Shown: positions 4,715 to 16,228 of the stretch, piece by piece | Layout: the number at the start of each line of letters is the position of its first letter | How positions within the stretch are numbered: position 1 is the first letter of the stretch | Assembly (NCBI GenBank): GCA_004524535.1 | Contig: SDNY01000015.1 | Span: 1 to 44,573, forward strand | Source: Promethearchaeota archaeon | GTDB taxonomy: Archaea; Asgardarchaeota; Lokiarchaeia; Sigyniarchaeales; SOKP01 | Reading direction: 5' to 3' | Length of the DNA stretch: 44,573 nt | Notes under the pieces: model-generated | The model's input: the letters and a program-made list of their open reading frames with translations, nothing else | What the model was told of the DNA's origin: nothing | Database searches by the model: none | Program-made: the position numbers and the translations under genes

Positions 4715-5716
4715 ATGTTAAATTCCAAATTTGAAGATTTAAAACTTTTTTTGAAAGGTAAAAAAATTTTAATAACAACTCACGATTTAGTAGACATTGA
4801 CGGATTAGCATCCTGCGTGGTTTTAAAATTCTTTCTCAATCGATTTATTGATTCTTCCGATATTCATTTATTTTTACCAGAAATCTCAAAATCTACAAAA
4901 GATTTTATTCAAAAATACACAGAAAAATTTCCTGATATTACAATCCCCTTAGAAATTGAGTTTAAAACTTTAAAAATTGACATATTTTTAATTTTAGATA
5001 CAAATAATCTAGACCAAGTGGCAATTCCAGATATTAATAGTTCGGAAATTCCAATTATCTTTATTGACCATCATTTAAATTTGAAAAAGAATAATAAAAG
5101 GAATATATCTTTGAAAATTATAGACGATCAATATAGTTCAACTGCAGAAATTATATATGAATTATGTGAATATTTTAATTTAGAATTAACGCTACCCTAC
5201 AAATATCTTCTCATTGCTGCAATTTTAACTGATTCTGGGTTTTTTAAGCATGGAAATAATGATACAATATTGCGAATTTCAAAATTATTAAGTAATCAAC
5301 TAGATTATCAAGAAATCCTATCAACATTAAAGAATGATAAAACAATTCCCGAAAAAATAGCAAAAATAAAAGCATTACAAAGAGTTAAGTTAATTCAGGA
5401 AGGGAATTGGTTAATAGGAATAACTAATGTTGGAAGTTTTGAGGCAAGCGTAGCTTCTTCATTAATTAAAATAGGTTTTGATGTAAGTGTTGCATATTCA
5501 GAGAAAAAATCGGGGTATAGAATCAGTACGAGAGCAAAAAAATATGTTTGTTTGAAAACTGGCTTACATTTAGGGAAAATTTTAAAAGAAGTCTCTGAAG
5601 AGTGCGGAGCAAGTGGTGGAGGACACGACGGTGCTGCCGCATTAAATGGTATATTGGATTTAGAAATAATTATAGAGAAAATCCTTGATAGAATAAAACA
5701 AGTTTTAAATAAATAA
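4715..5716 (+). CDS. DHH family phosphoesterase (NrnA-like)
   Basis: THDLVDIDG, ILDT, IDHH, LTDSG, GGGHDGAAA motifs. Confidence 0.92.
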   Translation: MLNSKFEDLKLFLKGKKILITTHDLVDIDGLASCVVLKFFLNRFIDSSDIHLFLPEISKSTKDFIQKYTEKFPDITIPLEIEFKTLKIDIFLILDTNNLDQVAIPDINSSEIPIIFIDHHLNLKKNNKRNISLKIIDDQYSSTAEIIYELCEYFNLELTLPYKYLLIAAILTDSGFFKHGNNDTILRISKLLSNQLDYQEILSTLKNDKTIPEKIAKIKALQRVKLIQEGNWLIGITNVGSFEASVASSLIKIGFDVSVAYSEKKSGYRISTRAKKYVCLKTGLHLGKILKEVSEECGASGGGHDGAAALNGILDLEIIIEKILDRIKQVLNK

Positions 5717-14392: not shown

Positions 14393-14971
14393 ATGCAAGA
14401 AAAGAATAGAAATACAGAGGAAAAACTTACGAATTTTAAATGTCCAGCATGTAAAGACGGCGACATTGTAATTAAGAAGATTATCTACGACCTTCCAGAT
14501 AAGGATAAAATGCTAATTTTAAAATTTAAATGTAATAGATGTGATTTTGAAAATAATGATATTATCCCTTTAACCACTAGAATGGATGCTGGTATTATAA
14601 CTTTAAAAATCACTGAAGAAAACGATCTTAAATCTAAAATATATCGTTCTCCGACAGGAAATTTAGAAATCCCTGAATTGGAGTTAAAAGTAGAACCTGG
14701 GCCGAGTGCTGAATTTTATTATACTAATGTAGAAGGAATATTACTCAGATTTGAGCGAGCTGTTTCAATCTATCTAGATAATCTTGAAGATGCTAATCCA
14801 GAAAAAAGCGAAATAAAAGATACTTTAAAAGATTTACAAAAAGCCATGAAAGGACAACTTGAATTTACTTTAAAAATTGCAGATCCTAGCGGAGGGAGTT
14901 ATATAATCCCCGAAGATAGGTCAAAATATACTTTTAAAAAAATTGAAAATTTTGAAATAAATAAAGAATAA
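14393..14971 (+). CDS. ZPR1-type zinc finger protein
   Basis: CPAC...CNRC, LEIPELELKVEPGP, TNVEGIL, FTLKIADPSGGSYI. Confidence 0.92.
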   Translation: MQEKNRNTEEKLTNFKCPACKDGDIVIKKIIYDLPDKDKMLILKFKCNRCDFENNDIIPLTTRMDAGIITLKITEENDLKSKIYRSPTGNLEIPELELKVEPGPSAEFYYTNVEGILLRFERAVSIYLDNLEDANPEKSEIKDTLKDLQKAMKGQLEFTLKIADPSGGSYIIPEDRSKYTFKKIENFEINKE

Positions 14972-15051
14972 AATAAGACTTTTTCAAAATATTTTTAATC
15001 GAAAATGGTTAATCAATCTATATTGAATAATTGTTAAAAAGTGAAATTTAA

Positions 15052-16228
15052 ATGACAATTAAAAAAGTTGGAATTTTAACGGGCGGCGGAGCCATATTCA
15101 AGATTCTCCTTGATTGCCGTATACTGCCCTGGCTTAAATTCTGTATTATATGGTATCATGCTTAAAGCTTTTGATGCCGGTGTTGAATGCGTTGGAATTC
15201 TTAAAGGATGGAAAGGATTTTTAGAAAATCTGACAATACCACTTAATATTGCTGAACATGATGACCTTCATACCATAGGTGGTACTATTCTCTATACAAG
15301 CAGAACTAATCCTTTTAAAGGCGTTGAATCAAAAGAAGAAAAAGCAAAAGAAATTGCTGCTAAATTTGATGAGTTAGGTATCGATGCTCTAATATGTATA
15401 GGAGGAGATGATACATTAGGAGTGGCAGATTTGATGTATAAGCATGCAAATGCGAAGGTTGTTGGCTGCCCAAAAACGATTGATAATGATCTAGCGGGCA
15501 CCCATTACACTTTTGGATTTTGGAGCGCAGTTCAATTAGCATCGGATGCAATGGATAATTTAACAACCACCGCACGATCACATCAAAGAGTTTTTATTGT
15601 AGAAGTTATGGGACGTGATGCTGGATTTCTTACGATTTATAGTGGAATTTCGAGTGGTGCAGATATCATCTTAATCCCAGAGACCCCATTCAGTTTAGAA
15701 AGAGATGTTATCGAAGTTCTTAAAAAGAGAGTTAAAGCAGGGTATAAATATCACATTATTGCGTGCTCTGAAGGTGCTTATCCGGATAAAGATTCGCTTA
15801 AACGAGACTTTAAGACAATTACCCAAGAGACAATTGATAAATTACCAAAAGATACGTTTGGAAATCCTGTATTGCCTGCCCTAAATATGTCTCAAGTCCT
15901 TGTCGATGAATTGAATCTAAGAGATGATTTAAAAGAGGAATTTCAAGAGAATGGTGTGGATTTTGAAATACGAAGCGTTGTATTAGGACATACAATGAGA
16001 GCAGGACACCCGATTTCATTTGATCGAATTTTAGGATTACGATTTGGTTTAGCAGCTATGAAACTCGTGTTGAAAGAGGATTTCGGTAAAATGGTTTCCC
16101 TCCAAGGGAATCAAATTACTACCTTCCCACTCGATGAAGGTGTTAAAAAGAAATATTTAACTCCTGATAATGATAAAATGGAACTCCGGGATTTATTGGT
16201 AAAAATTCGCTATTTATCAAAGCAATAA
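15052..16228 (+). CDS. pfkA: 6-phosphofructokinase (PfkA family, likely PPi-dependent), split: join(15052..15091,15123..16228), 381 aa
   Basis: ATG 15052 gives MTIKKVGILTGGG; removing 15092-15122 yields ...GGGDCPGLNSVL, continuous with the 15110..16228 frame (GGTILYTSR, IGGDDT, PKTIDND, EVMGR, LGH). GGDD plus PKTIDND is the PPi-type signature. Confidence 0.93.
15092..15122 (+). other. 31-nt bulge-helix-bulge (BHB) intron in pfk mRNA (candidate)
   Basis: 4-bp central helix GCGG(15086-89)/CCGU(15117-20); 3-nt bulges AG^C (15090-92) and AU^A (15121-23); inner stem UCAAG/CUUGA; outer exon-exon stem GGGCG/CUGCCC. Cuts after the 2nd bulge nucleotide restore frame and motif. Confidence 0.85.

Follow-up and report, generated by a model that had tools for sequence, protein, structure and literature searches.

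The window analysed here is a 44,573-nt stretch of DNA (contig SDNY01000015.1 of assembly GCA_004524535.1, forward strand) from a Promethearchaeota archaeon of the Lokiarchaeia, and the element in question is a 31-nt insert at 15092–15122 that interrupts pfk, a gene of the PfkA (phosphofructokinase) family. The insert is very likely an archaeal bulge-helix-bulge (BHB) intron lying within the coding sequence (CDS) of the sole PfkA-family gene of its genome, which the splicing endonuclease EndA would cut out and after whose removal the ligase RtcB would join the exons. This interpretation is preferred because the geometry of the junctions, the presence or absence of the insert among relatives, the covariation of the helices, the choice of synonymous codons, purifying selection on the gene, its single copy and the occurrence of both EndA and RtcB in the genome all agree with one another. 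An earlier description made from the letters of the DNA (the sequence-only reading) had proposed a BHB intron in the messenger RNA (mRNA) of a central glycolytic gene of an Asgard archaeon, and the proposal is supported by the geometry, the relatives, the selection and the machinery described below. Its further suggestion, that the insert acts as a regulatory switch in the manner of HAC1/XBP1 splicing, found no support, given the patchy presence of the insert and the occurrence of similar inserts in unrelated housekeeping genes.

Structure of the interrupted gene

The 5' part of pfk comprises 13 codons from the ATG at 15052 and a single G at 15091; the next 31 nt, 15092–15122, are followed by AC TGC CCT GGC TTA AAT. 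Two open reading frames (ORFs) lie across the gene, one at 15052–15165 (37 amino acids (aa), TAA stop) and the other at 15110–16228 (372 aa), and excision of exactly 15092–15122 yields a GAC Asp codon, the motif GGGDCPGLN and a protein of 13 + 1 + 367 = 381 aa. The length of the insert is not a multiple of 3, and the unspliced reading gives only the 37-aa peptide. The sequence-only reading had placed a 31-nt insert across this Asp codon, split as G/AC, and had set an early stop after 37 aa in the unspliced message against a 381-aa enzyme in the spliced one; every coordinate is correct, and both predicted products follow from the reading frames.

Read from 15125, exon 2 matches PF00365 with E 4.8e-83 and 279 bits over profile positions 11–276, and an intron-less orthologue covers positions 1–276, the exon-1 residues corresponding to positions 1–10. 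Taken over exon 2 and the intron-less orthologue, PF00365 is matched above its curated cut-off over the whole domain, which places the protein in the PfkA family. PF00365 occurs in a single copy in the host genome, a metagenome-assembled genome (MAG) of 198 contigs that is 99% complete. The protein carries GGDD and PKTIDND, presumably the signature of pyrophosphate-dependent enzymes.

An assembly artefact, the doubt raised when the insert was first described, is answered by independent DNA. A 448-nt contig from a DNA run of another study covers 14953–15341, the insert included, without a gap and with 1 mismatch in 389 bases. Intron-less relatives are present in that run too, where they show up as joints from which a net 31 nt are missing.

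Fold at the junctions

The outer, central and inner helices named by the sequence-only reading, together with both bulges, are all present around the insert (Table 1), and they make up a slightly relaxed form of the hBHBh' motif, with two 3-nt bulges on opposite strands, a 4-bp helix and flanking outer and inner helices. For the cbf5 intron, EndA is stated to cut each bulge after its second and before its third residue (Yokobori 2009, PMC2738675). The cut sites predicted by this rule, 15091/15092 and 15122/15123, coincide with the exon borders that the reading frame requires, as the sequence-only reading had maintained, and the agreement is specific: among all placements within ±10 nt and with lengths of 25–37 nt, only the frame-restoring one, at 15091 with a length of 31, combines a 4/4 central helix with two inner pairs. 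At the fixed junction, the pairing rule was satisfied by 49 of 200,000 segment shuffles, none of which reached the observed −15.3 kcal/mol. The unconstrained minimum free energy (MFE) fold of 15076–15134 is nearly the same and differs only in the register of the 3' bulge, having a 3-bp central helix, a 4-nt 3' bulge and no bulged U.

Distribution among relatives

A total of 130 pfk loci were collected, 30 from genomes (55 of 60 genomes matched), 20 more from the same genomes and the best 80 of 362 metagenome contigs. Two of them (L047 and L078) are without upstream sequence, leaving 128 readable loci, and the tree, built with FastTree, has 126 rows, the insert-bearing L036 and also L102 having been dropped as truncated matches. 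The insert, hereafter intron 1, occurs at the identical site in 27 of the 128 readable loci, and the remainder have an uninterrupted GGN GGN GAY TGY, so that, in the comparison of relatives that had been suggested, it is either precisely present or precisely absent. On the tree its length is 31 nt in 17 loci and 32 nt in nine. It is found in 11 of 35 genomes of the taxonomic family of the window and in none of 15 loci from other families of the order, four single-contig genomes among them; in a second, partly overlapping set of 80 loci from the closest species-representative records, which are titled as Promethearchaeota/Promethearchaeia MAGs and never as isolates, 16 of the 79 readable loci carry it.

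At least 18 state changes of intron 1 are needed on the 126-row tree, and loci only 0.01–0.03 substitutions per site apart can differ in its presence. A search of the whole genome by nhmmer with profiles of intron 1 and of the second pfk intron described below matched only the pfk site (E 4.8e-09; next best E 0.87), which indicates that no repeat of many copies is involved. In the five codons that precede the BHB, alleles with the 31-nt insert resemble one another more closely than uninterrupted alleles do (0.73 versus 0.43). Several alleles have an unusual triplet at the position of the start codon, namely ATA in L016, L020, L022, L051, L087, L110 and L113, ATT in L092 and L263, and ACG in L006; the ATA alleles come from separate clades, and the allele of the window starts with ATG. 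The ATA alleles either use an AUA start or reflect a 5' exon and intron travelling as one recombination tract. From the likeness of the upstream codons and the shared ATA, we infer that the 5' exon and the intron move together by recombination. Intron 1 appears to have been gained or lost very often, recombination carrying the 5' exon with it being the most likely route.

Conservation of structure and selection on the gene

An alignment of 25 intron-1 sequences, 23 of them distinct, was scored at 11 BHB pairs. Of the cells at these pairs, 98.4% are paired, compared with 32–55% when the 3' partners are slid by 1–3 columns, and none of 500 shuffles reached either the observed pairing or the observed covariation score. 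The covariation among relatives that the sequence-only reading had named as a check is present: three pairs have changed on both sides, the central pair 15:48 from C-G to U-A, and both sides of the inner pairs 21:45 and 22:44 have changed in 5 and 6 distinct sequences, respectively. RNAalifold finds the same helices in the alternative 3' register. The 31-nt and 32-nt classes differ in sequence and keep the helices, which is the pattern of conserved structure, rather than conserved sequence, by which BHB introns are recognized.

The exon sides of the motif are restricted at synonymous sites as well. In intron-bearing alleles the codon at position −1 is GGA (26/26), the Gly codon ahead of it has C or T as its third base (26/26) and the Asp codon is GAC (26/26), whereas intron-less alleles use all synonymous codons (GGA in 43/85, GAC in 19/85). 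At the four BHB codons, diverged 31-nt alleles have a third-position identity of 0.88 and uninterrupted ones of 0.31, the corresponding values in exon 2 being 0.49 and 0.44. Synonymous sites of the exon flanks are thus fixed so that pairing persists, and the interrupted gene shows selection on the RNA fold as well as on the protein.

The ratio of nonsynonymous to synonymous substitution rates (dN/dS) is 0.03–0.10 in 11 pairs with an intron-bearing allele, one further such pair being saturated at synonymous sites, and lies in the same range in three scorable intron-less pairs. Between the window locus (L004) and L005, both interrupted, dS is 0.21 and dN/dS 0.10. There are no other stops in the 126 CDS of the tree, and the 26 interrupted genes among them show no further stops or frameshifts at up to about 30% protein divergence. 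These substitution patterns indicate that the interrupted pfk is kept under purifying selection, and the decay of the gene that had been considered as evidence against an intron was not seen.

A second putative intron in pfk

In 18 of the 126 loci, the Asp codon of the IGGDDT motif is divided, once more as G/AC, by another insert, 30 nt long and containing one or two stops in frame; the gene of the window is uninterrupted at this site. The carriers are L009, L017, L022, L023, L051, L053, L061, L075, L080, L082, L084, L086, L087, L092, L098, L110, L112 and L113. This intron 2 folds into a 5-bp outer helix and a 10-bp inner helix around a symmetric 7 x 7 interior, which matches in size a central helix of 4 bp with one 3-nt bulge per strand; the junctions that the frame requires are those given by the BHB rule. 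Its pairs are formed in 94.8% of cells, compared with 35–47% with slid partners, and two of them covary. At least ten state changes are needed for intron 2 on the tree, where 95 loci have neither intron, 13 have intron 1 only, five have intron 2 only and 13 have both.

The alleles of pfk can also be short or long, depending on a 10-residue, Glu/Lys-rich in-frame stretch after NPFK (region 15328–15350 of the window). This stretch, which is stop-free and variable in sequence, is an ordinary protein indel and no intron.

Splicing machinery and proposed mechanism

The genome encodes two EndA proteins (PF01974; 201 aa each, 107.9 and 70.7 bits), near C100:31106 and C84:30615, and one RtcB (PF01139; 561 bits), near C101:22508, all three genes being open. 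Asgard EndA is described in PMC5829648 as an (alpha-beta)2 type with a broad-specificity loop. Although the genome is estimated to be 99% complete, ARAGORN called only 22 tRNAs; introns were called in 13 of these, some of an implausible length. Probably, many tRNA genes escape detection because of interruptions at non-canonical sites. The low count and the 13 intron calls fit the heavily interrupted Asgard tRNA genes that are described in a preprint (bioRxiv 10.64898/2026.10.13.758758).

In the proposed mechanism, the G-rich codons that end exon 1 would form the central helix with the intron's 3' end and the outer helix with the opening codons of exon 2, and the intron interior would fold as a hairpin, so presenting the two 3-nt bulges to a two-subunit EndA. 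The enzyme would cut after the second base of each bulge, and RtcB would ligate the exons to give the GAC codon, the GGGDCPGLN motif and the 381-aa enzyme. The freed intron of 31 nt would probably be circular. Intron 1 is judged to be constitutively spliced and selectively near-neutral or selfish, not regulatory, and to belong to a population of mini-introns of about 26–32 nt in the protein genes of its archaeal family.

Other interrupted genes in the genome

The genome was scanned from the motif outwards, for BHB folds in combination with ORFs, a design that carries some circularity, with four sets of slid partners as controls. In the first scan (strict BHB, both exons open over at least 40 codons, intron length 14–120 nt) simple pair scores were no better than in the controls, and the only excess was among hits with inner helices of at least 8 bp (13 versus 5, 5, 5 and 6). 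The second scan (length 18–60 nt, scored by constrained-fold energy) gave 33 hits at E <= −14 versus 14–29 in the controls. A filter was then added which removes artefacts whose exon-2 frame is open far upstream; in the filtered set, the 24–34-nt class, the sole one with an excess and one chosen post hoc after the data had been seen, contains 10 loci at E <= −11 kcal/mol versus 3, 2, 4 and 3 in the controls, and the other length classes show no excess.

Pfam matches to the separate exons back seven of these ten loci beyond pfk, namely uL11, cdhA, cdhD, an aldolase, a B12-binding protein, an SCP2 protein and POR-gamma, with inserts of 26–32 nt. A search for further BHB-interrupted genes, which the sequence-only reading had suggested, has thus turned up at least seven. 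The products of cdhD and cdhA are subunits of CO dehydrogenase/acetyl-CoA synthase, and the motif at the cdhA junction is a presumed one. In 30 relatives, uL11 has inserts at no fewer than four different sites of the N-terminal domain. At site A the strict BHB rule holds in five loci, and the site of the window genome is common to four relatives; sites B, C and D in relatives were not confirmed by the strict BHB search, site B having been parsed by hand as a relaxed motif.

Among 13 further candidates, those in AlaRS, amidase, aconitase, amino-oxidase, BcrAD and AMP-binding_C genes began mid-domain. The AlaRS candidate is an artefact in that its exon-2 frame is simply open far upstream, and the open-upstream filter removed the amidase, aconitase, amino-oxidase, BcrAD and AMP-binding_C candidates as well as a cadherin-domain gene (C183) and an AlcCBM31 gene (C136). 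The survivors of the 13 are the B12-binding, SCP2 and POR-gamma genes.

Considered jointly, these observations make it likely that the family of Loki-type Asgard archaea is in an intron-rich state, in which many protein genes, among them essential ones such as those of ribosomal protein uL11 and the acetyl-CoA synthase subunits, carry tRNA-type mini-introns of 24–32 nt. One gene could then hold several of them (two in pfk of relatives, two in POR-gamma of this genome, at least four sites in uL11 over the relatives), gain and loss would occur at the scale of strains, probably by recombination of the intron with its flanking exon, and the preferred sites would be highly conserved, often Gly-rich motifs whose codons provide the G-rich strand of the BHB.

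Some smaller observations may be added. POR-gamma has a second, stop-containing hairpin insert of 24–27 nt about 100 nt upstream of the first, in the GGQG motif, with an exon of about 38 codons between the two. The scan hit on C187 is an unverified candidate. An Asp codon is split after its G in four mini-introns (pfk introns 1 and 2 and those on C113 and C16), three of which follow AG; the shared split and context may reflect a target preference or chance. Upstream of pfk, at 14393–14971 on the forward strand, the window encodes a ZPR1-type zinc-finger/jelly-roll protein (PF22794, E 1.1e-18), of a family common to archaea and eukaryotes. Rfam and ARAGORN gave no match over the window.

Table 1. 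Positions of the pfk features in the window and of the other inserts in the genome (C numbers denote contigs of the genome).
Feature	Position	Strand	Evidence
pfk exon 1: ATG, 13 codons, first base (G) of the split Asp codon	15052..15091	+	ORFs; PF00365 positions 1-10 via intron-less orthologue
Outer (exon-exon) helix, 5' strand; pairs with 15124-15129, one unpaired base (U)	15081..15085	+	98.3% of cells paired, 23 distinct sequences
Central 4-bp helix, 5' strand (exon 1); pairs with 15117-15120	15086..15089	+	100% of cells paired; one CG-to-UA compensatory change
5' bulge (A, G, C); predicted cut 15091/15092, after second base	15090..15092	+	Sequence and cut rule (PMC2738675)
pfk intron 1, putative 31-nt BHB mini-intron	15092..15122	+	Same-site insert in 27/128 readable relatives; independent DNA run
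Inner (intron-intron) hairpin: 15093-94 with 15115-16, 15098-15102 with 15109-15113	15093..15116	+	Fold and alignment of intron-1 sequences
Central helix, 3' strand (intron 3' end)	15117..15120	+	Alignment pairing
3' bulge (A, U, A); predicted cut 15122/15123, after second base	15121..15123	+	Sequence and cut rule (PMC2738675)
pfk exon 2: AC of Asp codon, 367 codons, TAA stop	15123..16228	+	PF00365 E 4.8e-83
Outer helix, 3' strand (exon 2)	15124..15129	+	Fold and alignment
Empty site of pfk intron 2 (window gene uninterrupted)	15407..15408	+	Insert after Asp-codon G in 18 relatives
cdhD 30-nt BHB insert, in-frame stop	C8:3057-3086	-	Pfam positions 7-135 then 138-227
cdhA 30-nt BHB insert, in-frame stop	C100:12004-12033	-	Prismane domain in exon 2
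SCP2 protein BHB insert	C86:9543-9568	+	Pfam positions 3-72 then 74-98
uL11 30-nt strict BHB insert, in-frame stop, in conserved Gly-Pro-Ala/Gly-Pro motif	C188:175-204 (L139/L155)	+	Exon 2 starts at N-terminal-domain position 21
B12-binding protein insert	C113:6524-6555	-	Exon 2 from profile position 12; junction rebuilds GAC Asp of DxHxxG-type motif
DeoC/LacD-family aldolase insert	C16:3517-3548	+	Exon 1 ends at profile position 220/229
POR-gamma 30-nt BHB insert, in-frame stop	C189:15035-15064	-	Exon 2 matches from position 42
CCG/Fer4_8 iron-sulfur protein candidate insert, unverified	C55:4956-4984	+	Scan hit

Alternative explanations

Several observations weigh against a spliced BHB intron in pfk, or against its being one of many. 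The plain folding energy of the region is ordinary (z = −0.62; 45 of 200 shuffles fold as well), and what is non-random is its geometry, not its stability. The BHB itself is imperfect: in one register a U bulges from the outer helix, and in the other, that of the MFE and RNAalifold folds, the 3' bulge grows to 4 nt and the central helix shrinks to 3 bp. Intron 2 has a weak central helix that includes one G-A mismatch as well as G-U pairs, and 53 of 500 shuffles reached the pairing percentage of this intron. The RNA consisted of contigs from three metatranscriptome runs with small shares, and these cover only parts of exon 2 (15141–15409, 15425–15680 and 15471–15822), none reaching 15092–15122. 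An ATA stands at the start-codon position, with no canonical in-frame start, in seven of 26 intron-1 alleles and in none of 100 intron-less ones, and some of these interrupted alleles might not be translated, despite their low dN/dS. To the post hoc choice of a length class in the genome scans must be added the lack of an overall excess: 441 hits against 482–519 in the controls in the first scan and 4856 against 4761–4851 in the second.

The switch put forward by the sequence-only reading, in which Pfk synthesis would depend on conditional EndA/RtcB activity as in HAC1/XBP1, is in keeping with a length that is not a multiple of 3 and leaves the unspliced message with only a 37-aa product, with the single copy of pfk and with the mini-intron in a second glycolytic-type gene, that of the DeoC/LacD-family aldolase. 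It is nevertheless unlikely. An intron present in only 11 of 35 family genomes and 27 of 128 loci, with at least 18 changes of state and differences between very close relatives, is too dispensable to be expected of a conserved regulatory device; the same kind of insert occurs in the unrelated housekeeping genes uL11, cdhA and cdhD, and no sensor or conditional element is evident. The very patchy distribution and the presence of like inserts in unrelated housekeeping genes rather suggest an element that is tolerated and possibly mobile, and that is spliced constitutively. A disabling insertion that is never removed, leaving pfk a pseudogene or on its way to becoming one, would be compatible with RNA contigs that yield no spliced junction, since none reaches the insert, and with the ATA, ATT or missing canonical starts of several interrupted relatives. 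Such decay is, however, very improbable for a gene with dN/dS of 0.03–0.10, a pair interrupted in both members included, with no further stops or frameshifts in 26 interrupted copies, with covarying helices and fixed synonymous sites that maintain the BHB, and with no other pfk in a 99%-complete genome to take its place.

Ribosomes could also be imagined to cope with the insert, either by translational bypass, of which T4 gene 60 and the yeast mitochondrial 'byps' are examples, or by read-through and frameshifting. A GGA precedes the insert in 26/26 alleles, as at the take-off codon of T4 gene 60, and a hairpin follows it, but the matched take-off and landing codons and the stop after take-off that mark T4 gene 60 are lacking: no GGA or other Gly codon stands as a landing site before exon 2, and GGA is followed by GCC, not by a stop. 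Bypass, moreover, could not produce the Asp, since the G and the AC of its codon stand on opposite sides of the insert, and the conserved pairs extend into exon 2, beyond what a take-off hairpin would require. Frameshifting would have to differ between inserts of 31 and 32 nt at one site, and read-through would meet in-frame stops in intron 2 and in the uL11, cdhA, cdhD and POR-gamma inserts. A ribosomal solution is for these reasons hardly credible. The chance of an assembly or sequencing artefact, to which a 198-contig MAG might seem open, is negligible and was already refuted by the contig from the other study and by the recurrence of the insert in dozens of independent assemblies. A spliced BHB intron of the tRNA type therefore remains the preferred explanation.

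Comparison with known systems

Published protein-spliced introns in archaeal messengers are very few, being limited to cbf5 in some Crenarchaeota and to one Haloferax 5' untranslated region (UTR). The cbf5 intron is reportedly the subject of Watanabe 2002 and Yoshinari 2006. It lies in the pre-mRNA of a pseudouridine synthase gene in Desulfurococcales and Sulfolobales (PMC2738675), and its citation by the sequence-only reading as a precedent for a BHB intron in mRNA agrees with that text. The introns of cbf5 and pfk are alike in having an intron in the CDS, a relaxed BHB and cuts between bulge residues 2 and 3 that are the borders of the ORF, and further in a host with a hetero-oligomeric, broad-specificity EndA and in lineage-specific loss. 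They differ in that pfk belongs to the Asgard archaea (Promethearchaeota), encodes a kinase of central metabolism and has two intron sites in one gene; in that about two losses are reported for cbf5, whereas pfk, with its at least 18 changes on 126 rows, is far patchier; and in that pfk would be one of several interrupted protein genes of its genome, its splicing being deduced from sequence, whereas complementary DNAs of cbf5 were sequenced.

In Haloferax volcanii the HVO_1309 mRNA has a BHB intron in its 5' UTR (Schwarz et al. 2020, PMC7714728). It resembles pfk in that an mRNA serves as substrate of the tRNA splicing endonuclease and differs in that the intron stands in an untranslated leader and breaks no ORF, and in that it was shown by knock-down and in vitro cleavage. 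The same 2020 paper names cbf5 as the only other mRNA case. With the non-canonical BHB introns of Asgard and TACK tRNAs, as described in PMC5829648 and bioRxiv 10.64898/2026.10.13.758758, the pfk introns agree in the enzyme and motif predicted, in being small, in having arisen repeatedly and in occupying many positions. The host RNA of the pfk introns is, in contrast, a messenger, in which codons form the exon side of the motif and coding and pairing constrain the same bases. The word mRNA is absent from the text of the Asgard tRNA-intron preprint (bioRxiv 10.64898/2026.10.13.758758).

In outline the proposed splicing is also similar to that of HAC1/XBP1, in which a protein endonuclease makes two cuts in a structured mRNA, an RNA ligase joins the ends and the frame changes. 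There, Ire1 cuts within the 7-nt loops of twin stem-loops, the ends are joined by tRNA ligase or by RtcB, and the process is stress-regulated. The pfk sites, by contrast, are placed within 3-nt bulges along a single uninterrupted stack of helices and not in the loops of twin stem-loops, and there is no sign of regulation; no search for Ire1 itself was made.

A full-text search of the literature, covering few subscription journals and no supplements, found no description of BHB introns in Asgard protein-coding genes. As far as this search goes, the mechanism is of a known kind, and the gene, the lineage and the multiplicity of the introns are new.

Biological significance

If the interpretation of the pfk insert is correct, the lineage nearest to eukaryotes would use mRNA splicing by EndA and RtcB as a normal step of gene expression. 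Because interrupted genes are called truncated or missing, there would be a bias in the genes predicted, and in the metabolism reconstructed, from Asgard MAGs. Direct tests would also become possible of how mini-introns are so often gained and lost in the absence of a homing endonuclease. Should the intron-rich state hold for the family, a protein-only machinery, the one that eukaryotes still use for tRNA and XBP1, would routinely splice mRNA in their nearest prokaryotic relatives, and standard gene calling would mis-annotate a measurable share of the core genes of these archaea.

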